Shown here one piece after another: positions 6,032 through 19,505 of a DNA stretch of 64,000 bases. The DNA is from Escherichia coli. Lineage in GTDB: Bacteria; Pseudomonadota; Gammaproteobacteria; Enterobacterales; Enterobacteriaceae. Location: NCBI RefSeq assembly GCF_041886205.1, contig NZ_CP169029.1; one strand, 5' to 3'. The translations under genes and the position numbers were made by a program. The notes under the pieces were generated by a model. It was not told the DNA's origin, searched no databases, and saw only the letters and a program-made list of their open reading frames with translations. Every line of letters begins with the position of its first letter. The first letter of the stretch is position 1.

Positions 6032-6105
6032 GCGGGCGTAGTTCAATGGTAGAACGAGAGCTTCCCAAGCTCTATACGAGGGTTCGATTCCCTTCGCCCG
6101 CTCCA
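6032..6105 (+). tRNA. glyU: tRNA-Gly, anticodon CCC
   Basis: A 74-nt cloverleaf can be read by eye: acceptor gcgggcg/cgcccgc, anticodon loop 'cttcccaag' (CCC), T-arm 'gagggttcgattccctt', and an encoded CCA. Confidence 0.92.
6076..6105 (+). repeat. attL: 30 bp of the tRNA-Gly 3' end, repeated exactly at 19239-19268
   Basis: 'acgagggttcgattcccttcgcccgctcca' occurs in direct orientation at both positions. Confidence 0.9.
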
Positions 6106-6110
6106 GTTTA

Positions 6111-6140
6111 CTGATAAATAAGCATATTTTTATTTATCAG
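6111..6140 (+). other. AT-rich hairpin just downstream of glyU (11-bp stem, 8-nt loop)
   Basis: 'ctgataaataa' pairs with 'ttatttatcag'. There is no U-tail, so terminator function is uncertain. Confidence 0.3.
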
Positions 6141-6453
6141 CTAGTTACTTAGCCCCGCTAATGCAGGTACAGTCGTAACTACACATTGCACAATCGCCGC
6201 GCCTGTCGCGTGGTTGGTGTGTGGTAGTCGGGAGCATATCACCGCGCTGGCAGTGGTTTCAACGTTCTTACTGCGACAGCCCAACAACGAACAAAAGCCG
6301 CCTGCCCGGCATAATCCCGAAGACTTTTAGTGAAGCGCATTTTAGCCCGATGCCCCCGTTCTGTCGCCGTCGCGAGACGCCGCAGGGGATAAACAGGTTT
6401 ATGGTGGTCACGGTACTTGCAGACCATATGCAAGCTCTGCCAGCGGTTCGGCC

Positions 6454-6562
6454 TCGCTCCCCTTGGGTACATGGTCATCCTGATAAACTTCACTAACTGA
6501 CATAACGCTGATAAAGTCGCCAGAGGCTCCGCTTGTCTCTTTACCACTAATGGGGCTTTATG
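6454..6562. repeat. copy A of a ~110-bp diverged direct repeat
   Basis: By eye it aligns with 7004-7110 at roughly three-quarters identity. Shared blocks include 'ctcgctcc..gggtacatg.tcat', 'ttcact..ctgacataac.ctgat', 'gtcgcc', 'ctccgc' and 'ttaccac.aa.ggggct.tatg'. Confidence 0.7.
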
Positions 6563-6635
6563 GCTTCTATTGCCTTGATTTTTAATGTTTATGTTCTAGT
6601 CTGAATGTAACTTTGACACAGCAAGGAGTGAAAAA

Positions 6636-6914
6636 ATGTCTGATAATATGAAACGTTTCGAAGTTAAACGAGAAGGCATAGTTTACGGATATGTAGAAGA
6701 GGGTACATTTGAAACCCGGCGTTGGAATTTCGTCTACCCAATCGTAGATGGAAAGATATCTATGGACATTACGACCGTTAATATCCAAAAACAAGACGGA
6801 AAGACCCTTTTGGAATCACAAATCAAAAATATTGGTTTTGATGTCGATTTTGAAAAAAGAACCCTTACAAGAAATGATGGTACAGTTTTTGATTTAGTTG
6901 AAATCGATAGTTAA
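6636..6914 (+). CDS. hypothetical 92-aa protein (no family recognised)
   Basis: A strong RBS 'aaggag' lies 8 nt upstream of the ATG. The gene is AT-rich and followed by a hairpin. It sits between the two repeat copies. Confidence 0.55.
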   Translation: MSDNMKRFEVKREGIVYGYVEEGTFETRRWNFVYPIVDGKISMDITTVNIQKQDGKTLLESQIKNIGFDVDFEKRTLTRNDGTVFDLVEIDS

Positions 6915-6939
6915 TCATCACTAAAAGTCTTCACACTTG

Positions 6940-6972
6940 GGCAGGAGTACCCACCCCTTGGGAACTCCTGCC
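6940..6972 (+). terminator. stem-loop downstream of the 92-aa ORF
   Basis: 'ggcaggagtaccca' pairs with 'tgggaactcctgcc' (14-bp stem, one mismatch, 5-nt loop). There is no clear U-tract. Confidence 0.35.
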
Positions 6973-7003
6973 TGTATTCAAACCCGTTTCAAGTAGCTAC
7001 GTT

Positions 7004-7110
7004 CTCGCTCCTTCGGGTACATGATCATGATAAAATTCACTGTCTGACATAACCCTGATGCTGTCGCCTGACGACTCCGCGTGTTGTCTTACCACCAACG
7101 GGGCTATATG
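7004..7110. repeat. copy B of the ~110-bp diverged direct repeat
   Basis: See copy A (6454-6562). Confidence 0.7.
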
Positions 7111-7247
7111 CGCGCTTTGTTTAAATGGCCCCAATTTAAAGATTCACATGGGAAAGGCCTGCACTTCTGAAAACCCGCTTTCTCAAATTCAATTGAAAAC
7201 GGGTTAATATACTATTACTCAATTTTTTTTCTAAATAATAATCAGTC

Positions 7248-8387
7248 TTATTTGATTAAAGAGTAAATTCCATCTCTATCTAAAAAATCAATGACGTCGT
7301 AGTATGATATTGATAACTCCCACGATCCTAATGCATAGCATTGAATTTCGTACGGGCGGAAATGAAAAGTTAATCCTGAATCATGTATAGTAAAAATATC
7401 TAAACGGCTTTCTAAAATCCCCTTTACCATTTCAGCTAAAGTAGTGTCGTCCGGTTTTTGACCAGTCCTCTCCCAAAATACACGTGGAGCATCTGACATG
7501 AGTTTTTCTTTAATTTTTTTAATAGCATCTAAGTGGGTGCCTCGAATGAAAAGCTCAGATAGAGAAAATTTATATGCGTAGTCATTATCTGTAACCACAA
7601 AATTACTCACAGCAAAGTGGCTGTTTGGGTGTGCAGCGCCAGCGCCGTACCAGTCTACGTTATGTAAGATGCTTATAACATTTTTATTGCAATAAGCAAT
7701 ATAATACATTTCATTGTAATAGCTTGTGTACGTACTTTTATATTCTTCATGCCAGCCAAAATTGTGTGGCCAAGGCGACGTTCTGTTATCAAACACTAAG
7801 CTTGCTACACGGCCTGAAAAATAATTAGATATTATTTCTGCCGACTCTGGAAATAGTTGACTGCTTATTTTCGGGTAAGTTATTTCAAGCTCATGGCTAG
7901 GGATGGTGTTGTGATCTTCTTTATGTGTTAGGCTTATGAATGTAAAGCTGCCGTGTGTAACCCCGCTTGTTACTTCAAGGTTTTGTTGGGTTGCAGCCAG
8001 GTTTAATGATCTTTCTAAAATATCCCAGCCATCAGATCTTTTGTAGTCGATGTATTGGATTTTACTAGATATTAAGGATGGGACTTCGGCGTCGTCAATC
8101 AGCAGTGGGACTACGACGACATCATCTGGTTTATAATATTTTAACTTTTCAATGGCGTCATTTATTTCGCGCCTGATGTATCCATTTTTATTACAGCTAA
8201 CTTTGCTAAGTATTATTATGATAACATTTGCATTGTTAAAATTCTTTTGTATTTCATAATCCCAAATCACACCACCCGGAATATCTTTTATATCCATCCA
8301 CGGTTTATAGCCATTGTTTTTCAACTTTTCATAAATTGACTCGGTTATTTTTTCATCTTCTTTAGCGTGAGCCAAGAATATCTTCAT
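7248..8387 (-). CDS. TIR-domain protein with C-terminal DUF4163/DUF3298 (RsiV/PdaC-like) domain, 379 aa
   Basis: The N-terminus follows the TIR_2 pattern ('KIFLAHAKEDEK..', 'PWMDIKDIPGGVIW', 'VIIIILSKVS', conserved Glu in 'YIRREINDAIE'). The C-terminus carries DUF3298 signatures ('DWYGAGAAHPNSHF', 'FTIHDSGLTFHFRPYEIQCYALGSWELSISY'). The RBS is 'agagga'. There is no signal peptide or TM segment. The gene is very AT-rich. Confidence 0.75.
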   Translation of the reverse strand: MKIFLAHAKEDEKITESIYEKLKNNGYKPWMDIKDIPGGVIWDYEIQKNFNNANVIIIILSKVSCNKNGYIRREINDAIEKLKYYKPDDVVVVPLLIDDAEVPSLISSKIQYIDYKRSDGWDILERSLNLAATQQNLEVTSGVTHGSFTFISLTHKEDHNTIPSHELEITYPKISSQLFPESAEIISNYFSGRVASLVFDNRTSPWPHNFGWHEEYKSTYTSYYNEMYYIAYCNKNVISILHNVDWYGAGAAHPNSHFAVSNFVVTDNDYAYKFSLSELFIRGTHLDAIKKIKEKLMSDAPRVFWERTGQKPDDTTLAEMVKGILESRLDIFTIHDSGLTFHFRPYEIQCYALGSWELSISYYDVIDFLDRDGIYSLIK

Positions 8388-8991
8388 GTTTAATCCTCTA
8401 TGTGAATCACTCTATAAGGTTGATACTTGTGACATATAAAATGCATTTATTATATTGCAATAAGTAAGGTATCGATAGTCTGTGTTTTCTAAAGCCCAAT
8501 GCGTTGAGAGCAAAAGTTAGTGCTAAGATGAGTTAACTTTTTGACTATCAAAAGCGGTCTTTGAGAAGCAGTGACCCATAAATGTGATATCCGTGCTAGA
8601 TGTCTGAAAATTTCCTGCTTCAGGCCACATTTTACTCTTGGCTGTTAAGCAAACTGGGGAGTTTTATCTCGACTTGAAAAATTGCACGCTTATGGTTGCC
8701 CCTCCCTCAACGATTAAGGCTTCAACTTCCCCCGTGCGCCTCTCCCAGCCGAAGGCTGGGCGGGCTGTATATCGATTTGCCTTTCTCTGTGGCGTTTATG
8801 ACCCTGTTTCGCGTTCTGATCATGAGGCTGTGGGTTAGGGTTAATCTTCTCTTTAAACGCTAAATCACTCTTGACTCTCCGCTGTTAAAGCACTTTGCGT
8901 TGATGCTTGGCGCTTCTCTTGGCTGTCGTTATTGTTTTGGCTTCGGTGTCATCAATCGTTCGATTCTTGCTACCTGTCTGAGTGATTACTA

Positions 8992-9065
8992 TCTGGTATC
9001 ATCAATTTAGGGTTTGACTAAATGCTACCACCAATGCAATGATGCTACCGTTTTGTGATACCAGA
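8992..9065. promoter_or_regulatory. res-like recombinase binding region upstream of the serine recombinase gene
   Basis: A perfect 10-bp inverted repeat 'tctggtatca' (8992-9001) / 'tgataccaga' (9056-9065). Internal direct repeats are 'tcatcaat' (8949, 8998) and 'atgctacc' (9022, 9042). The region ends 15 bp before the ATG. Confidence 0.4.
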
Positions 9066-9080
9066 CGGGTGAGGTGAACC

Positions 9081-9656
9081 ATGAGGACTTTTATCTACTG
9101 CCGCGTTTCAACACGCGAGCAGGATACGCAGAATCAGGTGCTGGCTATTGAGCGTGCCGGGTATAAGGTGCCGGAGAGCAGGGTAATCAGCGAGGACATT
9201 TCCGGCAGCGTTCAGGCTATGCAGCGCCCTAAGTTCCGGGCGATGGTTGAGCACAAGCTGGAAGCGGGAGATCAGCTTGTCGTGCTGAAACTGGACAGGC
9301 TGGGGCGTGACAACATCGATGTGCAGCAGACCATCGACATGCTGTTAGAACGCGGCGTGAAGGTGGTGTCTCTTGACCTGCCAGCGCGTGATCTGACTTC
9401 ATCTGAGGGCAAGCTAATCCGCCAGATGTTTGGAGCCTTTGCTGAGTTCGAGCGAAACCGTATCCGTGAGAGGACGCTGGACGGGCTGGAGAAGGCGAAA
9501 GCCAATGGCGTTAAGCTGGGACGCAAGGAAGCCACCGACACCACTCAAAAGGTGCAGGAGTTGCGGAGTGAGGGACTGTCTCAATCGAAGGTAGCGAAGC
9601 GTCTCGGCGTTAGCGTGAGCACCGTTAAACGCCACTGGAACAAGGGCGAGGGGTGA
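9081..9656 (+). CDS. small serine recombinase (resolvase/invertase family), 191 aa
   Basis: N-terminal catalytic motif 'IYCRVSTREQ' (Ser nucleophile), then 'VLKLDRLGRD' and 'FAEFERNRIRERT', with a C-terminal HTH 'SQSKVAKRLGVSVSTVKRH'. Confidence 0.88.
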   Translation: MRTFIYCRVSTREQDTQNQVLAIERAGYKVPESRVISEDISGSVQAMQRPKFRAMVEHKLEAGDQLVVLKLDRLGRDNIDVQQTIDMLLERGVKVVSLDLPARDLTSSEGKLIRQMFGAFAEFERNRIRERTLDGLEKAKANGVKLGRKEATDTTQKVQELRSEGLSQSKVAKRLGVSVSTVKRHWNKGEG

Positions 9657-10737
9657 TGACCTACAAGCGAACGAGGTGCTACGACTGGCCGTTACTGGGC
9701 TGTGGGTGATGGATGACCTACAGTTTTTATATGGATATCAGGGTGTCATGTTATGCGTAATATCGTAATGATATGATTTATAATGTATTTTCGTATTACT
9801 TGCGGCTCTCGATGTGAAGAGGTGGCGGGGCTTTAGCCGTGCCAGACGATGAACATCGAGATCAGATTGTGAATGTGATTCATCACTGAACAATTCGGGG
9901 GATGGGGAGGGAAGGGGAGCAAGAGGTAATTGGTTACGTTCGGCGGCTGGGCTGAATCCTCTCTGTTCCCTGATTAACTTATTTCAGCGTACATGTGTAC
10001 ACTTAACTAATTATCTAGCCTCCCCTACTTACTTATCCTCCCCTCGGGAGGTACGCGCTGCACCTCGTTTACACGTCCCGTCCGCCTGCCGGAGACAGGG
10101 CTTCGCCCCTTCTCCAGACCTCTTCCCCTGCTGCGCTTCTCGCTCGCTTTGCTCTCTGTGATGCTCGGTGCTCATCGCTGCCACGCTTGCCGCACTGGCT
10201 AGGTGGCGGGGGTATACAGTGACACGACATTAACCATAGTTATTTGCACTTTACTGGTAATGGCACTGTATTCTCCATGCCATCTTCACTGTCTGCCGCC
10301 TGCCATTCTTTAGGATTCCATCCCTTAACATTCCGCGCTCGCTCTGCATATCTGGCGACACATTATCAAAATGTATCTTTCATAATTTTATAATCAATAC
10401 AATGAATTACATCTTTAATATTTAAAGGCTACTAATAAGGAAAGCTGGAACATACCTTTCCTGCTTTTAAACCTACGTGAATTGTTTTGTTAACTCCTCT
10501 CGGCCTAGACGCAACAAGGCTTTACCGGGCGTTGCAATCAGTTAAACCGCTAGAAAGCGGCTACTGTGGCAAGACGAACACCACTCGCTTGTGCATCCGT
10601 AGTTACCTACATGAGAGTGACTGCTAAGGATAGGCGGAACATTGTCACCAACACCGACAACGAAACCTCCACTACGGGAATGCAACCAATTCCCTGCGGA
10701 GCCTTTCAAATCCAAACCATTTACTGGAGTCTGTACA

Positions 10738-12582
10738 ATGCCAACAATTTTAGAGCGGCTGCTGGCGCATGCCGACAGGGCTGATGTGCTCAATGTGGGG
10801 TGCGCGGATGCTCAACAATTAATTGCAGATAAGGTTGTTATTCCCCGTTCCAAGTTGTGTCCTGTCAGTGGTAAGCCCGTTAAAGCTGTGTTTAATACTG
10901 AGCAGAACGTATTTTATTTTCACGCTGATGGTTCGGTTATGACTTTCCGCGAATGGAAAATCATAAACGGGATTGGCCGCAAGATACACGCCCGACGCGC
11001 TGATGCTGGGCTTCGTCAGGTTATTCAGCCCGGTGATGCAACTCACTGCCGACGCGCTGAGATTGAGCAGTGGCTGGACAAGAAGCCTGCTCGTTATGTT
11101 GACCCGCTGCCGCCAGACTTCCCCGGCGTTCGTGTCGATGACGCTGCACTTAAACCGCGTGAACACTCCATTCCAGAATCGACAACCGGGCAGAATGCTT
11201 TTCTCAAAGCCTGCCGCGAGTTCCTGATTTGTGATGAGAAGACCATGCACCGTATCAACAGGGGCATGAATAAACTGGAAGCGATGCGCAATACAGATTT
11301 CAAACGCTACGGGGACTCAGCGGAGTTTCGTCAATTGTGGTGTGGAGAGTCGAAACCTGCCGAGGATAAATTTAACAGTACAAATCATCATTGTGACCCG
11401 AACGGCTTGGCTGCATTGCCGTCTGTGCCGTCACTGAATACTGCGCCGTATGAGTTCCGCCCGCTGGCTCGCTGTGACCGAAACGCACGCGTTAGCCTGC
11501 TGCCACCTGATGGGCTGGAGTGGAGGCCGGGGCAGTTGTCTGTTGCTGATGTGATCTTTTCCCGTGGTGGTGATGTGCTGGCCGTTCTTCCCACGGGTTA
11601 TGGCAAAAGTGCTGCCTTCACTTACCCATTGATTTATGAGTCCCGTGCTGGCGTTGGTCTGTCTGTAATCGTTGTTCCTACTAATACCCTTAAACGCCAG
11701 ATTCTCCGACAGTTGCGGGAAGCGGGCGTTCACGCAGTGGCCTTTGGCGATAAGCTACCGAAGCACCGCAACGCGCAACAACTGGCGGGGCTGGCTGCCG
11801 GGGCGTTCCGTGTTGCTGTTGTTTCGCCTGAACATCTGGTTCCGTCGAATCAGGTTTTCGCGGCGCTGATGGCTTACGGTGTTGATCGTTTTATCATCGA
11901 CGAAGCGCACACGGTTAAAGACTGGGATTTTCGGCCTGCTTACGAGGCAATGCAGCACTCGCTACAACATGCCTTTCCTTCGGCTCAGCGCTGCGTGTTT
12001 ACGGCTACGCTACTACGTGAAAATGAGCGCGGTTTAATGGAGTCGCTGGGATGCCGTGGCGATTACGTCACATTCCGTGCTGATGTTGCTCGCGAGAATA
12101 TCCAGTTGATTCCGGTCAGGCAGTGCCGCCAGCGATACCGCGCGGCTGTTGGTCTGGTCGAGGCTCTGCCGAAGGAAGAGAAGACCCTCATTCTCGTCAA
12201 TGACCTTAAGACCTTGCGGGCGTACCTGAAACTCTTAGGCGACCGGGCGCGGCCATATCACTCGAAGACGATGCACCTGAGTAACGAAGAACGCCACGCA
12301 AACGCTGAGTGGTTTGCCACTACGCCGGGCGCAATTCTGGTTGCGACTAAAGCTTTCGGACTGGGGGCTGATGTTCCCGATATCCGTAACGTTATCGTGA
12401 CTTACATTCCTGATGACCTGCCTGATCTCGTTCAGATGATTGGACGAGCCGGGCGCGATGGTCAACCTGCCCGCGCGTTTCTGCTGTGGTCATCTCTGGC
12501 GCTGGATGCTGCGCCTGATGAGCTTGCTTACTTCTACCGCGCTGAAAACTGCAACTGGGATTACATCTCCCGCTTCCTCTGA
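10738..12582 (+). CDS. RecQ-family superfamily-2 helicase with a ~270-aa N-terminal region of unknown family
   Basis: Motif 0 'WRPGQ', I 'LPTGYGKSAAF', II 'IIDEAHTV', III 'TATL', V 'VATKAFGLGADVPD', VI 'QMIGRAGRDGQ'. The start is chosen at 'MPTILERL' after 'ggag'. The 32-codon upstream extension in the ORF track is probably not translated. Confidence 0.8.
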   Translation: MPTILERLLAHADRADVLNVGCADAQQLIADKVVIPRSKLCPVSGKPVKAVFNTEQNVFYFHADGSVMTFREWKIINGIGRKIHARRADAGLRQVIQPGDATHCRRAEIEQWLDKKPARYVDPLPPDFPGVRVDDAALKPREHSIPESTTGQNAFLKACREFLICDEKTMHRINRGMNKLEAMRNTDFKRYGDSAEFRQLWCGESKPAEDKFNSTNHHCDPNGLAALPSVPSLNTAPYEFRPLARCDRNARVSLLPPDGLEWRPGQLSVADVIFSRGGDVLAVLPTGYGKSAAFTYPLIYESRAGVGLSVIVVPTNTLKRQILRQLREAGVHAVAFGDKLPKHRNAQQLAGLAAGAFRVAVVSPEHLVPSNQVFAALMAYGVDRFIIDEAHTVKDWDFRPAYEAMQHSLQHAFPSAQRCVFTATLLRENERGLMESLGCRGDYVTFRADVARENIQLIPVRQCRQRYRAAVGLVEALPKEEKTLILVNDLKTLRAYLKLLGDRARPYHSKTMHLSNEERHANAEWFATTPGAILVATKAFGLGADVPDIRNVIVTYIPDDLPDLVQMIGRAGRDGQPARAFLLWSSLALDAAPDELAYFYRAENCNWDYISRFL

Positions 12583-12627
12583 GTTAACTGGCTCGCCTGT
12601 TTAAATTCTTTTCTGGAGAAAATTTGT

Positions 12628-13062
12628 ATGCCTGATGAAACCGCGCTGCATCGCGCGGGGCGTTCTGACGCCCTGATTAATGCACAACTCGCCTTTGCCC
12701 TGAACGGGTATTCATTTGACGGACTGGCGTCACGCCATGTTCACGCTCTTAATCGTGAGGCCATATTGCGCCGGGTAAGCTCGCCACTACAGCGGTATTG
12801 CCTGCTGAATGATTGCGAGCCGTGGGAATGCATCGCGGCGGTGTTGAACAGATTCCGACGCCGGGAGGATGGCTCTCGCGTTTGGCCGACCTACCGCATG
12901 GCTCGCGAGATATTTAACGGAACTGTTCACCCGGATATTAAGACGCGCGATGAGATATTCCAGTCTGTACAACGCCGCCTCTTTTTACCAAAACCAGTAC
13001 ACGCCGAAGTAATTCAGTATCTGCGCGTAATGGGGCTGATAGGAGTTAATCCGCATGACTAA
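12628..13062 (+). CDS. hypothetical protein, 144 aa
   Basis: RBS 'ggagaa', and its 3' end overlaps the next ORF. No family recognised. Confidence 0.55.
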   Translation: MPDETALHRAGRSDALINAQLAFALNGYSFDGLASRHVHALNREAILRRVSSPLQRYCLLNDCEPWECIAAVLNRFRRREDGSRVWPTYRMAREIFNGTVHPDIKTRDEIFQSVQRRLFLPKPVHAEVIQYLRVMGLIGVNPHD

Positions 13063-13261
13063 AACCGAGTTTGAAAATGAAACGTGGCGGATGAAAGGCT
13101 TGCTCCTTGGAGCGCTAATTCGCCGCCTTGAGGAAGACAAGGTTGGTGAGTCGCGCATGGCCGCAGCGGAGTTATCCAGTGCGGTCAACTTCCTTAAGGC
13201 CAATGCCGTAGAAGCGCCGGACACGTCATTTAACCGTGTATTTGAGGATGACGAGCAATGA
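13055..13261 (+). CDS. hypothetical 68-aa helical protein (weak resemblance to small phage DNA-packaging subunits)
   Basis: Translationally coupled on both sides (ATGA overlaps). 'AAAELSSAVNFLKANAV' resembles a motif I associate with small terminase subunits. This is a very tentative link. Confidence 0.45.
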   Translation: MTKTEFENETWRMKGLLLGALIRRLEEDKVGESRMAAAELSSAVNFLKANAVEAPDTSFNRVFEDDEQ

Positions 13262-13434
13262 CACCCGCAGAGTTTAGAGCTTGGTTTGCAACCCTGCCGC
13301 CGAACTATCAGAGCGCAGCACGAGCCATGTATGAAAGCGCCCGCAAGACGGGAACACATACCGCTTCCAGCCTGTTACTCATTCGCTCGCTGATTGAAGA
13401 TCAAATCAATTTCGATGGAGATTTTACTCTATGA
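13258..13434 (+). CDS. hypothetical 58-aa protein (below the ORF-track size cut-off)
   Basis: Its ATG overlaps the upstream stop (caATGa), and its stop overlaps the next start (ctATGAg). It fills an otherwise empty slot in a tightly packed operon. Confidence 0.45.
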   Translation: MTPAEFRAWFATLPPNYQSAARAMYESARKTGTHTASSLLLIRSLIEDQINFDGDFTL

Positions 13435-13994
13435 GAGTTTTAAACCTGACCGATATTCAGCGCATTAATACCCTTGTGAAGCGCGACCTTCTCAATGTGG
13501 AGGAGGTTGTCGCTGCAACCGGATTCGACCCGGTAGATGTGGACGCGGTGCTGAGAGGCGTCTATGTCGCCGATCTTGCCAGCCAGTGGAAGGACGACGC
13601 CGCTATCTCACTGGAGGAATACAACGCTATCCGTAAGCGCTGGAAACCGGGGCGCGGTCACTGGGACACTGCACACGCCATTGCACGCGATTTTCTAATC
13701 CGGCCTGAAACGGTATTAGCTATCGCCCATTCCCGCTTTAGCAATGCCCAAACGCACCCGATGCCGAAAGCTGTTAAAGCGAAGCCTGAGAAGCCGCAGA
13801 CGATGCGCCGCCTGTCTGGCGCTGATCTTGACGAGGCGCACAAGCTGGAGCGCTTTGGCTGGCCTGTTGCTGAGATTGCCGGAAAGCTTGAAATTCCAGT
13901 CGAAGCGGCTGCTCAAGCGCTGCGCCTGATGCGTAATCGCTGGAGCTATCCCGATATTTTAGAAGACGTTAACGCGCGATACGGGGCTAAGTGA
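13431..13994 (+). CDS. hypothetical 187-aa protein with HTH-like segments
   Basis: Coupled to its neighbours. 'GWPVAEIAGKLEIPVEAAAQALRLM' looks like a helix-turn-helix. Confidence 0.5.
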   Translation: MRVLNLTDIQRINTLVKRDLLNVEEVVAATGFDPVDVDAVLRGVYVADLASQWKDDAAISLEEYNAIRKRWKPGRGHWDTAHAIARDFLIRPETVLAIAHSRFSNAQTHPMPKAVKAKPEKPQTMRRLSGADLDEAHKLERFGWPVAEIAGKLEIPVEAAAQALRLMRNRWSYPDILEDVNARYGAK

Positions 13995-14230
13995 TGGCAG
14001 AGCATAACGAACCACTGCATCCCGCAGTTAACCCTGATCTCTATGTGAATCTTGATGAACAACGCGAGGGATACGCGCCGATTGAATCACGGGGCTGGGG
14101 TGTGTTGACGCAGAACCTGACCGGGGAAGGGCGAACCGACTCCAGCCAAACGCTTAACCAGAATCGAAGACAACGCCCGCGCGGCTCTGTTGGTGAACGC
14201 CGTTGGCTTCGCAGGCATGGGTTACTTTAA
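13991..14230 (+). CDS. small hypothetical gene, possibly frameshifted at a G4 run (alternative 3' end at 14246)
   Basis: The tail of frame A is Arg-rich and looks non-native. The other frame, from 14121, reads 'PGKGEPTPAKRLTRIEDNARAALLVNAVGFAGMGYFNEELP*' and ends in an ATGA overlap with the next gene. Confidence 0.4.
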   Translation: MMAEHNEPLHPAVNPDLYVNLDEQREGYAPIESRGWGVLTQNLTGEGRTDSSQTLNQNRRQRPRGSVGERRWLRRHGLL

Positions 14231-14242
14231 CGAGGAATTACC

Positions 14243-14482
14243 ATGAGCAAAACCATTGTACTGTTGCCGCCCCGAAAGAATACCGACTGGGCTGCACAAT
14301 TAAAGCTGATTTCTGAATCGCTTGAGGTGAGTCAGGCAGACCTTGCCCGCGCCTATCAGGTTGACCGTCAGGATATGGGGAAAGCGTATCACGGTGTACG
14401 CAAACTGCCGGAGCGATGTGTGCCTGTTCATATGCTGTTGTTAGCGCAGGTTCACGACTTTAGAGCATTATCAGGAGAATAA
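14243..14482 (+). CDS. hypothetical 79-aa protein with putative HTH
   Basis: RBS 'gagga'. 'LEVSQADLARAYQVDRQDMGKAY' is HTH-like. Confidence 0.5.
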   Translation: MSKTIVLLPPRKNTDWAAQLKLISESLEVSQADLARAYQVDRQDMGKAYHGVRKLPERCVPVHMLLLAQVHDFRALSGE

Positions 14483-14485
14483 TTT

Positions 14486-15166
14486 ATGTCTGATCAGAAT
14501 GTTAATCCGTACCTTTCCGGTGGTGATGCTGCACCGCAGCAATCGCCATACATGGCCGCACCAGTGGGCGCTGACAATGGCGCATCTCGCTTTAGCGCTG
14601 AGCCTGCTGATGCTGATTTCCTCCGTACCCAGCCCGTTAACGGCAATGATGGCGGCCAATGGAATAATAGCAATATTGCTAATCAGCAAGACCGGAACAC
14701 TGACAGCGCCGAGGCGCAGGTGGGCGATACTATCCCCCTGATGGATGGAACAGCTATTGAGTACACCGCCGAGCTACAAGGTTTAATGGGGCAGTTTCAC
14801 CAGTCCATAGAAAGCCAGCTAGGGCAGGGTACAGTTGACGCTATGTTGCAGTACGCTGGCACGCTCGATGCCGGGACTCAATCAACCCTTGAACGGATGG
14901 TTATGTCTGGCGACCCTGCACAGATGCAGCGGGCGGTTCAGTATCTGCAAGAGCGTATGGCTGGCGGTTCCATTACCGGTTACGTCCCGAACGGCCAGAC
15001 CGCCGCGCAACCTGTCGGAATGTCTCATGCTGAGTTTATTGCAGCGTATGACCAGCTTTCGCAGTGGGCACAGCAATCAGGGTATGGCCCCGGCCATCGT
15101 CAGTACGACGAGCAATACCGCGCTCTGGTTGCGCAGCGCTCCGCTGGCAAACGTGCTGGCCGCTAA
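14486..15166 (+). CDS. acidic/Gln-rich 226-aa protein resembling T7-group scaffolding protein (gp9) in its C-terminal half
   Basis: The N-terminus is disordered. The C-terminal segment 'VDAMLQYAGTLDAGTQSTLERMV...GMSHAEFIAAYDQL...YDEQYRALVAQRS' parallels T7 gp9 '..FDALYNHLETHNPEAAQSLDNAL...GFADRSEMIKAMSDPRY..YRRQVEQKV', recalled from memory. It lies upstream of the capsid-like ORF, as in T7. Confidence 0.45.
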   Translation: MSDQNVNPYLSGGDAAPQQSPYMAAPVGADNGASRFSAEPADADFLRTQPVNGNDGGQWNNSNIANQQDRNTDSAEAQVGDTIPLMDGTAIEYTAELQGLMGQFHQSIESQLGQGTVDAMLQYAGTLDAGTQSTLERMVMSGDPAQMQRAVQYLQERMAGGSITGYVPNGQTAAQPVGMSHAEFIAAYDQLSQWAQQSGYGPGHRQYDEQYRALVAQRSAGKRAGR

Positions 15167-15325
15167 GCAATCGCCCGTCCTGTCTTCTCCGCGTCTTAAC
15201 CTTACGTTTTAGAGCCTGAATCGCGTTGTACATCGCCAGATGTGTATTCGTACACCTGCGCCTGTAAAACGCGAAATTACCTCTCAAACACCACACATAA
15301 ACCCACTTTGCATTGAGATCTGACA

Positions 15326-15673
15326 ATGACCTTACTGACACCTGAAAACGTGGCAGCGGCTAGGGCTGCCCGTAGTGCGAGGATTGAACACTGGAAAGCC
15401 AACGCCAGCCAGCTTAAACAGGACTTTGCTGACGAAGCGCACTGGCGGCGGCTCGCCTCACTCTACGGCGTGCGTATGCCCTCGGCGTATGTTCCCGGCT
15501 CTGAGCTGCGATTGTTGCGCAGGGCGGCCAAACGCGCGGGCATCTCTGGTGCTGACATGCGCGATGCTTTCGGTGGAGGCGTTGCGCACCTGCACGAGCT
15601 TAATCCCCACTGGCCTGCTTTCGCGCTTATCGGCCTGATTCTTGAGATCGCGGCTGAAAAAGCTGCTGCCTGA
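15326..15673 (+). CDS. hypothetical protein, 115 aa
   Basis: An ORF in the operon with no family recognised. Confidence 0.45.
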   Translation: MTLLTPENVAAARAARSARIEHWKANASQLKQDFADEAHWRRLASLYGVRMPSAYVPGSELRLLRRAAKRAGISGADMRDAFGGGVAHLHELNPHWPAFALIGLILEIAAEKAAA

Positions 15674-15740
15674 CCCGTCACATTCTCTTTTCCCATTTCT
15701 ATAAATCGCGCTGGCTATAGCTGGCGCGGGAGCTATTCCT

Positions 15741-16553
15741 ATGACTGACAATGTTTATACCCCTGATCAATTCCGCCCGCACTGGGGCGGTGTAGGTGCT
15801 GACAACGACATTCACATTGAAGCGTATGACCGGGACGTTCAGACCCGTCTTGAGGCAAAGAGCGTCTTTCTGGCCGAGGGGCTGAGCACATACAAGCCGC
15901 TGAAAGCCAGCAACCATTACCGCATTGATCGCCTGAGTGGTGATCTTGAGGTGAAGGGCAGAACCTCAGGGCAATCGCTGGAGCCTACCGCTGTTAAGTC
16001 GGACAAGCTGATTATCTCTGTGGATACGCTGAGTTATATCCGCATCCCGATTGATTATCAGGATGACTGGACTGCACCCACCTTTCGCGCAGAGCTGAGC
16101 CGCAATATCGGCACTGCGCACGCTAAGTTCTACGACGAAGCGCACACCATCCAGTTAATCAAAGCGACTGACTTTGTACCGCCGCCGACACTGCAACCAA
16201 CGTTTAACCCGCTTACCGGGCAATGCACCCAGCTTACAGAGAGGATAAATAAGATGATAACCACGATTAAGCTGAGGTGGCGGTACATCGAGCCGCCGCC
16301 AATGACTGGCGCACTTGCTGACCTGAAACAATGGGTAATTGATGCCGGAGAGCCTGAGCTTGAAGATGAATTTCGTAAGCTGCTGGGGCTGATGCGTCGC
16401 AATGGTATCAGTGATGAACGTGTTAAGGCGATTGCTGATGAGCTTTATGCTCTGGTATGCCAACGCCAGCGCGAAGAATACGAAGCCTGCAAGCGGGCTG
16501 CCTCTGACAATGGAGACTTTGAATCATGGTTACACGGACAGACCAACTACTAA
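15741..16553 (+). CDS. 270-aa protein; its N-terminal ~150 aa resemble the N-terminal part of T7-group major capsid protein (gp10), and its C-terminal ~120 aa are unrelated
   Basis: RBS 'gggag'. 'KSDKLIISVDTLSYIRIPIDYQDDWTAPTFRAELSRNIGTAHAKFYDEAHTIQLIKA' parallels T7 gp10 'HTEKVITIDGLLTADVLIYDIEDAMNHYDVRSEYTSQLGESLAMAADGAVLAEIAG', recalled rather than computed. It is too short to form a complete HK97-fold capsid protein. Confidence 0.45.
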   Translation: MTDNVYTPDQFRPHWGGVGADNDIHIEAYDRDVQTRLEAKSVFLAEGLSTYKPLKASNHYRIDRLSGDLEVKGRTSGQSLEPTAVKSDKLIISVDTLSYIRIPIDYQDDWTAPTFRAELSRNIGTAHAKFYDEAHTIQLIKATDFVPPPTLQPTFNPLTGQCTQLTERINKMITTIKLRWRYIEPPPMTGALADLKQWVIDAGEPELEDEFRKLLGLMRRNGISDERVKAIADELYALVCQRQREEYEACKRAASDNGDFESWLHGQTNY

Positions 16554-16561
16554 GAAAAGTG

Positions 16562-16954
16562 ATGCGGGGCTATTTGGAACACCTCGGCAATATACCGCTG
16601 GCGGAACGGATTACAAACGCTGCTGCATTCGAAGATGTTTATCGCTTCCTGTTGAATGGTTCCGGGCGGCTGGAGCTGCGCCGTGCTGACGTGGCTGCTG
16701 TCCGTGTCTTCTTGTGGAATTATCAGTACCGTCGCTGTGCGGTGACAGGTAAGCCGCTGCGCCTTGCGTCTGCCGTGCTGGATCACTGCCACCGAACCGG
16801 GCGCGTGCGTGCTGTGGTGCATCGTTCTGCTAATGCTGCCGAGGGCGGCTATCACGTAGGGCGTTTGTGCGGTATGTCCCCAACCAGCATGGGGGCGATG
16901 CTGAGTTGCTATCGCCAGCAATATAAAGGACTCGGCATTATTTATCCGAAATGA
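16562..16954 (+). CDS. endonuclease VII-like protein (start uncertain: 16526 or 16562)
   Basis: 'LDHCHRTGRVRAVVHRSANAAEG' matches the recombination endonuclease VII core 'DHDHxTGxVRGLLCxxCNxxLG'. The Cys residues of the Zn cluster are replaced here. Confidence 0.6.
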   Translation: MRGYLEHLGNIPLAERITNAAAFEDVYRFLLNGSGRLELRRADVAAVRVFLWNYQYRRCAVTGKPLRLASAVLDHCHRTGRVRAVVHRSANAAEGGYHVGRLCGMSPTSMGAMLSCYRQQYKGLGIIYPK

Positions 16955-16996
16955 CGGGGCTACTATGCCCCGTATTTTAACTGGCGGGAGGTGTTA

Positions 16997-17914
16997 TCAA
17001 ACAGGAATATTCAAGTAAGCGCAGATTGCATTAGTCAGCAGAGCCGGAGCTACCGCACCCGCAATTTTGAGGCTGCCAGAGTAAGCTTTGCCTATCATAG
17101 CTCCGACCCAGTTACCAATTTCCCCTCCAAGATTATTTGATGATGTGGGGGCTGGGGACTGCTCTATTGCTTGTTTCAACGTCTTAATGTCGCTGTCTTC
17201 AATGCCATATTCTTTTAGTTGACGCTCAAGAGTATTGAAGTCACCAGCTGTTATGGAATTTTGCTGATTAATATCCCCAGTGTTTCCAGCACCAATTGCA
17301 CCAGAGTTGTTAACATTTCCGTTGAAATTATTAATGTTATTTACTGTCATACCTGCCGCCTCTTTCTTTTCTTCGAGAGAAAATAACAACCCTTCACCGA
17401 GTATCCCTTTTCTTTCAAGTAATAAAGCCCAGTCGAGAATCCTTGAGCGAGTATTTGAAAGTATTTTGGTTATCTGTGTGGGGTTAATGCTATATGCCAT
17501 CCGAAAATCGCAGTCGCCCATTTCCTGCAAGAAGTCAGCCAGAAAAGATGGGAGGTCACTATATAGTGTGCTGTCCCGTTTCGCGTACTCAATCAACATT
17601 GATACAGGATTGTTTATGTGAACAGTTGTTAAGGTATCGTAGATATCTTGATGCTTTTCCTGTGTATTACTTAGTTGATATGGAATCCAACCGACATATG
17701 GATTGAACGCTCGAATCGGAACATTTCTGAGAACTCTGTAGTCGGGAAGTAGATCATGTGATGGATAGCCGTTTAATTCATGCTCAAGCCACTCAGATAT
17801 ATCCTTTAGGTCTAGTTTGACTGAGATCATTTTTGCTCGTGCCAATAGCTCCTCAATATCGGTTGAGCTTGAGCTAGCCATTTCTTGTAACTTAAGGACG
17901 GGAGAATTGTTCAT
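16997..17914 (-). CDS. AbiTii-like abortive-infection protein with Asn/Gly-rich linker and glycine-zipper C-terminus, 305 aa
   Basis: The N-terminus 'LKLQEMASSSSTDIEELLARAKMISVKLDLKDISEWLEHELNGYP...PDYR' fits the AbiTii N-terminal pattern as I recall it. The C-terminus 'GGEIGNWVGAMIGKAYSGSLKIAGAVAPALL' contains GxxxGxxxG. The gene is AT-rich and adjacent to the integrase. Confidence 0.6.
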   Translation of the reverse strand: MNNSPVLKLQEMASSSSTDIEELLARAKMISVKLDLKDISEWLEHELNGYPSHDLLPDYRVLRNVPIRAFNPYVGWIPYQLSNTQEKHQDIYDTLTTVHINNPVSMLIEYAKRDSTLYSDLPSFLADFLQEMGDCDFRMAYSINPTQITKILSNTRSRILDWALLLERKGILGEGLLFSLEEKKEAAGMTVNNINNFNGNVNNSGAIGAGNTGDINQQNSITAGDFNTLERQLKEYGIEDSDIKTLKQAIEQSPAPTSSNNLGGEIGNWVGAMIGKAYSGSLKIAGAVAPALLTNAICAYLNIPV

Positions 17915-17934
17915 TGAAGCCCCTCAAAAGTTTT

Positions 17935-19152
17935 TCAGCATGTTATCGCATCATATTTGACTAACTCAACATGTCTCGATAACTCTTGCATCCCAGCTCC
18001 CTTGCTGTATGTCCTGAATGCTTCAGTTTTGGCCTTTTGTTCGGTGTGCCCTGTGATTGCACCTATCCGCTGTTCTGGTACGCCAGCCCTATCTAAGCAG
18101 GTGATGAAGTGACCGCGCAGTGAATGGAAGCATTGGCGATCTGTAGCCGCTGGCAGCACGCGACGGCGTAGCCGTGTGAATGCCTGAGAATACCACGGGC
18201 CGCGCTTACCATCGGCGCGTTTAATCTTGTTTGATTGGGGCAGTAGGTATTCCCCGTTGTTCTGCGAAAGGTATTTATCAACGATGCTAATTAATAGCGA
18301 GTGTATGGGGACGTGCCTTACGCCCGCTTTAGTTTTAGATTTGCTGACGTAGAAGCACCGTATCCCTTCAACTGTGACGATCTCATCTCGTTTGATGCTG
18401 GCGATTTCGTCGAGACGCATACCGGAATACAAGCCGATTATGATTACGTCGCGCACCTCGCCACCTGCCTCTTTTATTAATGCCTGTAGTTGGTGAGGCT
18501 CAAACGGCTGGTAACTTTCAATGGTGCGGCGGGCTTCCAGATTGTGGCCGTGGAACGGGTTGCTGTCCGGTATCTGATCGTAACGTCTCTTGGCGAACTC
18601 ATAAAGACTGCCCAAGGAGGTTAACCAGTTTTGCACAGTCTGCGGAGCTGCATCACTTTGCTGCTGGGTATCAACGAACTCTGAAACGAGCCGCCGCCCA
18701 ACTTTATCTAAGGTGATATCTGTCTTCTTGATGCTTTGGAGAAATACCTCTACCGCTCTGGCCGACTTGCTCAATGTAGAGAATGTTCGGCGCTCGCTAT
18801 ACACCGCCATGTACTCATCACGGATAGCGGACAGCTTGGGAATCATTGTTGAAACATGTGTAGTTTCGGGTGATTTATTGCTGGCCTGTTTTAATAAAAT
18901 TTGCAGGGAGCTAAGCGTGTTCTGGATTCTAATATCTTCGCGCTCAGGATTTAGTAATGTCTTGATGTTATTGAACTCAATCAGCATGTGGTTGCGAAAA
19001 TGCCGAGCCTTTACGATGTCCCTAGTTCCCGTGGATTTGCGCCAAGCCCGTTTATTGCCAAACAGATGGCGCATGTATTTTGGGACAAAGATTTGAAATA
19101 TCCAGACGCCGTTATGGCTTTGAAAAAGATACTGATTGTGCTTGATAGGCAT
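17935..19152 (-). CDS. int: tyrosine recombinase / phage-type integrase, 405 aa
   Basis: The catalytic tetrad context is present: 'GMRLDEI' (Arg), 'HSLRGHF' (His-x-x-Arg), 'ITGHTE' (His) and 'FRTYSKG' (Tyr). It lies 87 bp from attR. Confidence 0.9.
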   Translation of the reverse strand: MPIKHNQYLFQSHNGVWIFQIFVPKYMRHLFGNKRAWRKSTGTRDIVKARHFRNHMLIEFNNIKTLLNPEREDIRIQNTLSSLQILLKQASNKSPETTHVSTMIPKLSAIRDEYMAVYSERRTFSTLSKSARAVEVFLQSIKKTDITLDKVGRRLVSEFVDTQQQSDAAPQTVQNWLTSLGSLYEFAKRRYDQIPDSNPFHGHNLEARRTIESYQPFEPHQLQALIKEAGGEVRDVIIIGLYSGMRLDEIASIKRDEIVTVEGIRCFYVSKSKTKAGVRHVPIHSLLISIVDKYLSQNNGEYLLPQSNKIKRADGKRGPWYSQAFTRLRRRVLPAATDRQCFHSLRGHFITCLDRAGVPEQRIGAITGHTEQKAKTEAFRTYSKGAGMQELSRHVELVKYDAITC

Positions 19153-19238
19153 AGCTTTTTGTCCTATAAAAGCACGCTATCAGGTACAGCCATTTGTACA
19201 ATGTTGGGATGGGTAAGCAAGTTTCCGACTTGTTTTAA

Positions 19239-19268
19239 ACGAGGGTTCGATTCCCTTCGCCCGCTCCA
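19239..19268 (+). repeat. attR: duplicated 30-bp tRNA-Gly 3' end
   Basis: Identical to 6076-6105. Confidence 0.9.
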
Positions 19269-19505
19269 ATCAATTTATCTTCACCTCATCAACCTGCCAT
19301 TTTTGTTGTATCCGATTTTCTATATTATCTTAATTCAATCGCTTCAGACTTTTCGCAATCGCCGTAATACTTCCCCATTTTGTTGTAAATAAAAAGCATT
19401 TACGCAATGCAATCCTTTTGTAACAACCCAGGTAAAACACCTTATTTTCAAGTTGTTAAATAAGTGGTTATCTACGCTTTTAACAAACGATTGATGGAAT
19501 ATTTT

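Follow-up and report, generated by a model that had tools for sequence, protein, structure and literature searches.

The stretch of Escherichia coli DNA analyzed here (64,000 nucleotides of contig NZ_CP169029.1; hereafter, the window) carries an integrated island at the tRNA-Gly gene glyU. The initial annotation had described a 13.2-kb island bounded by an exact 30-bp tRNA repeat, the first copy of which lies inside an intact tRNA-Gly. In line with this, the 30-bp sequence ACGAGGGTTCGATTCCCTTCGCCCGCTCCA was found in two exact copies in the window (6076–6105 and 19239–19268; none expected by chance), the identity of the repeats reaching 33 nt with one mismatch, and both ARAGORN and Rfam recognized the tRNA gene. 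In an alignment with the empty locus of E. coli 1943 (actS, tRNA-Gly, GH15), the sequence to the left of attL and that to the right of attR together rebuilt an uninterrupted site, and therefore the insertion corresponds to 6106–19268, i.e., 13,163 bp. Within it, the core is, as judged by homology, a phage-derived morphogenesis and packaging module that the initial annotation had missed, and the island would therefore represent a different kind of element. The features that delimit the island and those on which this view is based are the following:

6032–6105, plus strand: tRNA-Gly(CCC) gene glyU (ARAGORN; Rfam tRNA, 71.6 bits), whose last 30 nt (6076–6105) form the attL core, an exact repeat
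6106–6312: left arm specific to the glyU type, common to the NCTC11023 element and not to the leuX and thrW elements (alignment)
13055–13261, plus strand: 68-aa small-terminase-like protein of the T7 gp18 type, N-terminal part (PF11123, 20.6 bits, E 5e-4)
14486–15166, plus strand: 226-aa short scaffolding-protein homologue, with its C-terminal ~100 aa common to podophage scaffolds (hhalign, tblastn)
15741–16553, plus strand: chimeric 270-aa open reading frame (ORF), in which capsid residues 1 to ~160 are fused in frame to the 99-aa ORF of the family (junction at ~16208–16216)
17935–19152, minus strand: full-length tyrosine integrase, 405 aa (PF00589, E 1.7e-10, and DUF6538)
19153–19268, plus strand: right arm with a degenerate tRNA-like stretch and the attR core at 19239–19268 (repeat, empty-site alignment)

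The strongest of the phage relationships was that of the capsid gene. Intact members of the family to which the island belongs encode a capsid homologue of 331 aa, which matched phrog_267 ("major head protein") with an E value of 3e-64 and along its full length was 54–56% identical to the major capsid proteins that phages Lidtsur, forsur, glasur and J8-65 encode, and to those of their relatives from Kosakonia, Cronobacter, Enterobacter and Pantoea. These phages are virulent podophages of approximately 41–43 kb from the genus Bonnellvirus (order Autographivirales). In the 270-aa ORF of the window, the phrog_267 match was confined to residues 1–159, and the identity to the Lidtsur capsid was 60% over 167 aa.

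The 226-aa protein, encoded upstream of the capsid gene, was also related to these phages. Its C-terminal ~100 residues were matched by tblastn at the 3' end of the scaffold gene of two podophage contigs, and a profile comparison by hhalign of 13 family members with eight podophage scaffolds gave a probability of 95.5% (E 1.6e-8) over 95 columns ending at both C-termini. The terminal motif common to the two is visible by eye (...RQYDEQYRALVAQRSAGKRAGR in the element vs. ...PQYNQHYNVLVEQRKQAKALGY in the phage), and a scaffold gene placed directly upstream of the capsid gene is an order that element and phage have in common. The protein is about half as long as the phage scaffold (226 vs. ~400 aa). 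Homology to scaffolds was absent with PHROGs and in plain BLASTP (E 1.5); one source names a 226-aa family member 'Scaffolding protein'. The third component, the 68-aa small-terminase (TerS)-like ORF, aligned with the Lidtsur TerS by BLASTP with an E value of 9e-5, and PF11123 (DNA_Packaging_2; cutoff, 27.5 bits) scored 26.3 and 31.5 bits in family members and 63.5 bits in the annotated TerS of Lidtsur. Portal, large-terminase (TerL), tail and lysis families had no match among the backbone ORFs in Pfam or PHROGs, the unmatched ORFs being of at most 187 aa. When core and non-coding regions were compared with phages at the DNA level, only the capsid N-terminus matched.

Elements with this backbone constitute a conserved family of integrative elements of Enterobacteriaceae of ~13–15 kb (13.2–15.1 kb). 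The closest E. coli relative, that of strain NCTC11023, is likewise integrated at glyU; it has the first ~470 bp and the recombinase in common with the window, and is 80% identical at the nt level from the helicase to the 226-aa gene and 89% in the capsid/Endonuclease VII (EndoVII) region, while it is unrelated in exactly two segments (window 6573–8945 and 16948–17950). The backbone was also found at glyU in VREC0864, at leuX in the enteropathogenic E. coli (EPEC) strain E2348/69 as well as in OkiPb01685, A16 and N9, and at thrW in N18-04097, with an IS26-truncated remnant in P377. Further, it occurs in Trabulsiella, Enterobacter, Kluyvera and Kosakonia, mostly at tRNA-Leu(CAA), and the family of the 226-aa protein extends to Klebsiella, Citrobacter, Cronobacter and Phytobacter. 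Among the 21 loci compared, the backbone was mosaic, with the helicase, TerS-like, HNH and serine-recombinase genes each occurring as two or more alleles, and the capsid was the most uniformly conserved backbone protein (90–94% identical to that of E2348/69). Description of a named family of this kind was not found in the literature accessible without subscription.

Taken together, these relationships suggest that the family members are rather probably satellites of virulent, ~42-kb podophages of the Bonnellvirus type (Autographivirales), of which the window copy would be a degraded derivative. In the cycle that we propose, infection by such a phage would lead to excision of the element, which would then replicate by means of its superfamily 2 (SF2) helicase and the adjacent non-coding region of ~1 kb. 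The TerS homologue would redirect the large terminase of the helper to satellite DNA, the short scaffold, with its phage capsid-binding C-terminus, would compete for capsid protein, and the element's own major capsid protein would contribute to particles sized for 13–15 kb. Jointly, TerS, scaffold and capsid would thus yield capsids for a genome about one third that of the helper, from which portal, large terminase, tail and lysis functions would be obtained. The ratio of element to phage size (13.2–15.1 kb vs. 41–43 kb) is 0.31–0.36, which is close to the size ratios of P4 to P2 and of SaPI1 to 80-alpha. The hosts of Bonnellvirus-like phages (Escherichia, Enterobacter, Kosakonia, Cronobacter and Pantoea) overlap with the host genera of the element, which crosses genera with no conjugation genes of its own.

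Phage-derived genes beside an integrase at a tRNA site, together with a decay that is still going on (a 1.45-kb deletion in the window copy, see below), could also be explained by a decayed remnant of a temperate T7-like prophage, in which the phage-like genes would be leftovers with no current role and the fragment would have accumulated defence genes. We consider this very unlikely. Across three att sites and no fewer than five genera, a gene set of ~13–15 kb recurs in the same order, no larger intact relative was found, and random decay would leave neither one and the same subset everywhere nor capsids that are 90–94% identical. In IMG/VR, capsids were either of the element type (90–92%) or phage capsids of at most 56% identity, and the contigs that encode the latter were all virulent-type phage genomes of ~42–45 kb.

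A second explanation assigns a different role to the same proteins. The island would serve defence alone, with decoys in the form of phage proteins: homologues of capsid, scaffold and TerS would poison the assembly and packaging of incoming podophages in a dominant-negative manner, next to what the slot cargo does, and the island would move only rarely, by its integrase combined with generalized transduction or recombination. Defence genes at both ends are in line with this, as are a capsid N-terminal reading frame (in the 270-aa ORF) that has remained open and unchanged on at least 19 contigs, the lack of packaging evidence from searches for attP, and the interference of known satellites with their helpers through the same proteins (PMC5644958, PMC8569155). 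However, genera have been crossed by elements with a 90–94% identical capsid and no other transfer machinery, and the capsid homologue, present as a single copy in 58 of 5,426 complete E. coli genomes, was full length in all 58 carriers. Moreover, the full set of TerS, scaffold and capsid in an element one third of phage size suggests a need for packaging that goes beyond interference. On balance, a decoy island appears unlikely, albeit worth keeping in mind.

Several observations weigh against satellites of Bonnellvirus-type phages as well. In the window, the TerS-like ORF fails to reach the Pfam cutoff, and its match spans just the N-terminal half of PF11123. No AlpA-type regulator, excisionase or primase was recognized in the element, and the island yielded neither promoters nor terminal repeats resembling those of a helper; Lidtsur itself contained no repeated 13-mers from which a phage promoter could be derived. 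The HNH protein of the family looks like a mobile homing endonuclease and not a packaging HNH. Since the capsid is only 55% identical to those of known phages, the true helper, if one exists, may have escaped sampling. Finally, attP junctions gave no matches in IMG/VR or in the JGI metagenomes, whether leuX-type, glyU-type or relaxed patterns were used, although this negative carries little weight because the element is rare in both collections; the sole contigs of the element type in IMG/VR look like integrated copies. Reads across attP would be expected to run GCTATAACC–leuX core–AGTCACTAAA in the leuX type and TTGTTTTAA–glyU core–GTTTACTGAT in the glyU type. In an element-sized contig from Logan (L103), the two ends consist of the same 25 nt of the att core; because a circle and a repeat-bounded k-mer contig both predict such ends, this was not used as evidence.

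Either end of the backbone is occupied by a variable region, termed slot 1 and slot 2, with these features:

6313–6566: conserved non-coding segment of ~250 nt, left border of slot 1, 93–99% identical in all family members
6567–9080: slot 1, variable cargo hotspot, non-homologous to NCTC11023 (Pfam/PADLOC; slot catalogue)
6636–6914, plus strand: 92-aa ORF of slot 1
7004–7110: partial repeat of the conserved segment within slot 1, a direct copy (77–81%) of its last ~110 nt
7248–8387, minus strand: TIR_2 and DUF3298/PdaC-like protein of slot 1 (Pfam TIR_2, E 6.5e-22; PADLOC)
16955–17934: slot 2, variable cargo hotspot across the family
16997–17914, minus strand: AbiTii-domain protein, 305 aa, with a Gly/Asn-rich hydrophobic C-terminus (PF18864, E 3.3e-38; PADLOC AbiTii PDLC02334, 6e-41)

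Across the family, slot 1 lies between the conserved ~250-nt segment and the serine recombinase and measures 0.5–4 kb, and slot 2 lies between EndoVII and the integrase and measures 0–2.4 kb. The two slots held approximately 45 ORF clusters across 20 elements, including three type II restriction-modification (R-M) systems (XcyI; Eco47II with a MerR-fused Dcm methylase; an NmeDI_C-like system with Dcm), a Mrr_cat nuclease, a ThsB-like TIR protein, the TIR-DUF3298 protein of the window, AbiJ-NTD4, a YafO-family toxin, a DUF3800 protein (PADLOC candidate PDC-M04A) and several unknowns; AbiTii cargo was present in 5 of the 21 loci. As judged from this variation, the two fixed slots are hotspots in which defence genes are exchanged. 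The proposal of the initial annotation that the island carries exchangeable defence cassettes was thus well supported: both ends differ in content between genomes, and the TIR cassette of the window is 99.8% identical at the nt level to one in thrW elements with a different integrase.

Regarding the two cargo genes of the window, the domains that the initial annotation had named, TIR and AbiTii-like, were recovered with the E values listed above. The TIR protein matched the PADLOC model Aga_TIR over residues 2–118 (3e-16) and the TIR-APAZ protein of SPARTA in PDB (2e-7). Thoeris and SPARTA were both rejected for this gene, only the TIR domain being matched: the C-terminus is DUF3298/PdaC-like, and no partner gene (ThsA, or a short pAgo with APAZ) is present. 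Similarly, a two-gene AbiT system (AbiTi and AbiTii) was rejected; because slot 2 holds a single ORF with no adjacent AbiTi partner, the gene is termed 'AbiTii-like'. By gene content, neither of the two is a complete known defence system.

The segment that borders slot 1 is GC-rich and retains its 93–99% identity whatever the integrase or the host genus. It was found in 846 of 5,426 complete E. coli genomes (16%), 28 of the places being on plasmids, and in no case does it carry an annotation. Beyond the family, copies lie directly upstream of an AbiJ-NTD4 gene in Nissle 1917, beside relBE on a plasmid, and in a glyU remnant of strain 2013C-3492. A structured RNA at 6313–6566 is not claimed: RNAalifold, run on both strands, gave a covariation of +1.1 with few compensatory pairs, and no Rfam match was obtained. 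Within slot 1, an exact inverted copy of the first 15 nt of the segment (6918–6932) accompanies the partial direct repeat. The pieces that bracket the 92-aa ORF look like the scar of a cassette insertion or recombination event, and the same arrangement recurs in thrW elements that carry the TIR cassette.

This wide distribution on chromosomes and plasmids, along with a serine recombinase that is always located on the other side of slot 1, would also be expected of an integrative mobilizable element, in which the segment would act as a mimic of an origin of transfer or as a serine-recombinase site, with the machinery supplied by a co-resident conjugative plasmid. Nevertheless, Pfam and PHROGs scans found no relaxase, coupling protein or mating-pair genes, the plasmid copies of the segment are diverged fragments within mosaics rich in insertion sequences (IS), and the phage morphogenesis homologues would be left unexplained, all of which makes this the most improbable of the explanations considered.

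The initial annotation had also noted that the integrase reads inward from the distal repeat, which is correct (17935–19152, minus strand), and had regarded this placement as unusual. This second point did not hold for the present copy: the integrase was distal and inward-reading in every member of the family at three different tRNAs, and the placement is therefore the family's fixed design. The motifs of its catalytic region (GMRLxEI, HSLR, GH and TYSK) aligned with those of the leuX and thrW integrases. The window protein is 93% identical to the NCTC11023 integrase (97% nt), and 40% and 38% identical to the leuX and thrW enzymes, respectively; the mutual identity of the three integrase types (glyU, leuX and thrW) is only 38–40%, as compared to ~80–95% nt in the backbone. 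Of the three sites, leuX is also used by P4 for integration. With its integrase, tRNA 3'-end direct repeats and precise empty site, the island has the attributes of a tRNA-targeting genomic island of the tyrosine-integrase type.

A more specific version of the satellite proposal incorporates these results. According to it, the family comprises undescribed satellites of virulent T7/phiKMV-like podophages with their own capsid, a truncated scaffold and a mini TerS, and with no portal or TerL, which at the same time would serve as two-slot defence shuttles that swap integrases between glyU, leuX and thrW; the conserved ~250-nt segment may be a cassette-exchange site or a regulator. For this combination taken as a whole our confidence stops a little short of even, and we put it forward tentatively.

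As to the state of the window copy, 1.45 kb present in all relatives (13373–14824 of the NCTC11023 locus, L001) is missing. This has removed the HNH_3 gene, most of a 141-aa ORF and the part of the capsid gene that encodes its C-terminal half, and the microhomology at the deletion junction amounts to only 2–5 nt. The exact 270-aa fusion protein was found on at least 19 contigs from independent samples, including the NCBI assembly GCA_000303635.2, with the same TIR, AbiTii and integrase genes wherever a contig extends to them. Such an unchanged defective variant fits vertical inheritance in a lineage. The initial annotation had proposed that the island is probably still mobilisable, a claim that stood in part. 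Since the att sites and the integrase are intact, excision remains plausible, and the window copy can probably still excise; on the other side are the capsid/HNH deletion, the failure to recognize an excisionase and the attP searches described above. Most likely, judging from its gene content, this copy has lost capsid-dependent transfer and persists mainly as a chromosomal defence island.

The remaining features of the core, between the two slots, are the following:

9081–9656, plus strand: small serine recombinase of the resolvase/invertase type, 191 aa (PF00239, E 8e-37; phrog_125 DNA invertase, E 5e-55)
9657–10737: non-coding region of ~1.08 kb upstream of the helicase, a candidate origin or regulatory region
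10738–12582, plus strand: SF2 DEAD/DEAH helicase, 614 aa, a candidate replication protein (PF00270/PF00271)
12628–13062, plus strand: conserved 144-aa ORF with no family match
13258–14482, plus strand: four small conserved ORFs of 58, 187, 78 and 79 aa, candidate regulators, the 187-aa one with weak helix-turn-helix signals
15326–15673, plus strand: 115-aa accessory ORF (phrog_21723), in a variable position between the scaffold-like and capsid genes
16526–16954, plus strand: Endonuclease VII-domain protein, 142 aa (PF02945, E 3e-6; phrog_423, E 1e-15; weak match to the Lidtsur EndoVII)

In 8 of the 20 loci where a recombinase was found (L004, L008, L009, L012, L013, L014, L019 and L023), the fixed position to the right of slot 1 is taken by a different serine recombinase, of only 26–35% identity, and it seems from this pattern that some recombinase is required at that position whatever its lineage. 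The start of the helicase was taken as the ATG used in the annotations of relatives. This protein matched the PADLOC 'DpdF' model PDLC02858 with an E value of 1e-269. The Dpd 7-deazaguanine DNA-modification system was rejected, and because the island contains neither DpdA/B/C nor any other dpd-like gene, the match denotes family-level similarity only; defence annotators may mislabel the backbone helicase as a component of a Dpd system. In the non-coding region, ~105 nt upstream of the helicase start, the 22 nt at 10611–10632 (ATGAGAGTGACTGCTAAGGATA) are identical to nt 1–22 of Lidtsur gp37, encoding a GNAT acetyltransferase (chance expectation, ~2-5e-5). This sequence was present in IMG/VR only in the Lidtsur genome and in no other element of the family; a footprint of recombination, or mimicry of the phage translation-initiation region, could account for it.

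Between scaffold and capsid genes, different elements carry ORFs of 115, 137, 157 or 87 aa. The 115-aa ORF of the window was rejected as a link to a helper, its only relatives being hypothetical proteins of Aeromonas myophages. The HNH genes of the family are of the HNH_3 type and occur as two alleles (~92% and ~63%), and one locus (L104, 5618–6136) has an extra HNH copy between the 144-aa and TerS-like ORFs.

Base composition and strand largely followed the initial annotation. The core at 9.0–17.0 kb is GC-richer (0.50–0.58), with all real genes on the plus strand. Its description of both ends as AT-rich and minus-strand or convergent was accurate for the composition of slot 1 (6.5–8.7 kb, 0.33–0.39) and of the AbiTii gene (0.40–0.42), but not for the integrase part of the right extremity, which has a GC content of 0.44–0.51, and at the left end the 92-aa ORF is on the plus strand.

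At the chromosomal level, the flanks of the island were matched by 5,418 of 5,426 complete E. coli genomes, with a maximum island coverage of 62% in any of them, and in ~5,400 genomes either the flanks alone were matched or other content occupied the glyU site. The empty glyU site is the common state in E. coli: in thousands of genomes the site is precisely empty, and the view of the island as a site-specific integrative element was supported. Directly outside the attR core, the window differs from both the empty site and NCTC11023 by a 4-bp indel at 19269–19272 (GCTCCAATCAATTTATC vs. GCTCCAATTTATC), the sole deviation in the empty-site alignment. Upstream of the core, the stretch of the right arm at 19153–19238 is degenerate and tRNA-like, with an anticodon-arm-like hairpin. 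In a contig of SRR9913979 (L108, 10663–10731), only 20 nt of the core remain before unrelated DNA begins, and a pseudo-tRNA-Gly(TCC) is predicted there by ARAGORN; the different right flank of this contig was rejected as an attP, since it reflects a rearrangement after 20 nt of core. The placement of the island between glyU and the ETT2 type III secretion cluster was confirmed, contigs collinear with the window having GH15/ygeQ and then the ETT2 export genes 3' of the island. From 19464 to at least ~26500, the window encodes GH15/ygeQ followed by SpaO, FliP, Bac_export_3, Bac_export_1, Bac_export_2, a GerE-type regulator and PrgH, an export gene run that is apparently complete. K-12-type strains have kept only remnants of this cluster.

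When compared to known satellites, the family resembles in its devices the capsid-redirecting phage-inducible chromosomal islands (PICIs) of Staphylococcus aureus. CpmB of SaPI1 retains the C-terminal capsid-binding motif of the 80-alpha scaffold and competes for capsid protein (PMC5644958), and Ccm of SaPIbov5 is a homologue of the capsid protein of its helper (PMC8569155). A shortened scaffold or a capsid homologue, an own TerS, about one third of the helper's size and a tyrosine integrase are thus found on both sides. However, the components here come from unrelated families and the host is Gram-negative; the helper is presumed to be a virulent podophage and not a temperate siphophage, neither a Stl-type repressor nor pri-rep is present, and scaffold-like and capsid homologues are combined in one element, which would act as a hybrid of the CpmB and Ccm strategies. 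By the SatelliteFinder definition (PMC10085698), the family falls outside the PICIs: no alpA, merR or stl regulator was found in the backbone ORFs scanned, the gene beside int being slot-2 cargo; nor was a primase-replicase module found, only the SF2 DEAD/Helicase_C helicase with no primase domain. Functional analogues of the TerS and capsid-morphogenesis components (PF11123 TerS-like, capsid and scaffold) were present by Pfam, PHROG and profile comparison.

In the definition of de Sousa et al. 2023 (PMC10085698), capsid-forming PICIs (cfPICIs) have int-alpA-pri and, in addition, genes for portal, protease, head-tail adaptor and connector, and TerL. They are likewise enterobacterial elements of ~14 kb with their own major capsid protein and TerS and with no tail or lysis genes. 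The present family falls outside this class as well: of the defining genes, only int was found here, and the capsid is of the T7/phiKMV type; portal, prohead protease, head-tail adaptor/connector and TerL of cfPICIs gave no matches in the window or among the proteins of the intact E2348/69 element.

The PLEs (elements resembling phage-inducible chromosomal islands) of Vibrio cholerae and the PICMIs (minimalist islands of the phage-inducible chromosomal kind) of Vibrionaceae are also chromosomal islands that parasitize strictly virulent phages and protect the host population. Neither shows a sequence relationship to the present family; PLE uses a large serine recombinase and remodels the coat of its helper by TcaP, and in PICMIs, according to PMC10803314, genes for capsid remodelling are absent. 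P4-like satellites and P2 prophages are similar in having a mobile backbone, often tRNA-integrated in E. coli, with fixed hotspots that swap anti-phage systems (Rousset et al. 2022, PMC9122126), whereas here two hotspots lie at the element ends, with another backbone and another presumed helper. Neither PHROGs nor Pfam gave a match to the P4-like genes psu, delta, sid, alpA, epsilon and alpha primase. By the SatelliteFinder definitions, the family belongs neither to the P4-like satellites nor to the PLEs.

Hochhauser et al. 2023 (PMC10121019) described integrase-only defence islands whose mobilisation is unclear and which might be uncharacterised satellites. The glyU/leuX/thrW family is a concrete candidate for a satellite among them and, if it is one, would explain the intergenus movement of some "integrase-only" defence islands. 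As a degraded copy, the island of the window probably benefits the cell today through its two defence genes. Since EPEC E2348/69 and other well-known strains carry intact copies, and K-12 can be infected by the candidate helpers, the proposal is directly testable. If true, it would provide a Gram-negative, E. coli-based model of a satellite exploiting virulent T7-like phages, in which an own capsid is combined with a short scaffold that competes for capsid protein, two devices that in staphylococcal islands have so far been observed separately. In practical terms, therapeutic podophages could be held back by such elements, which could also disseminate R-M, TIR and Abi genes.

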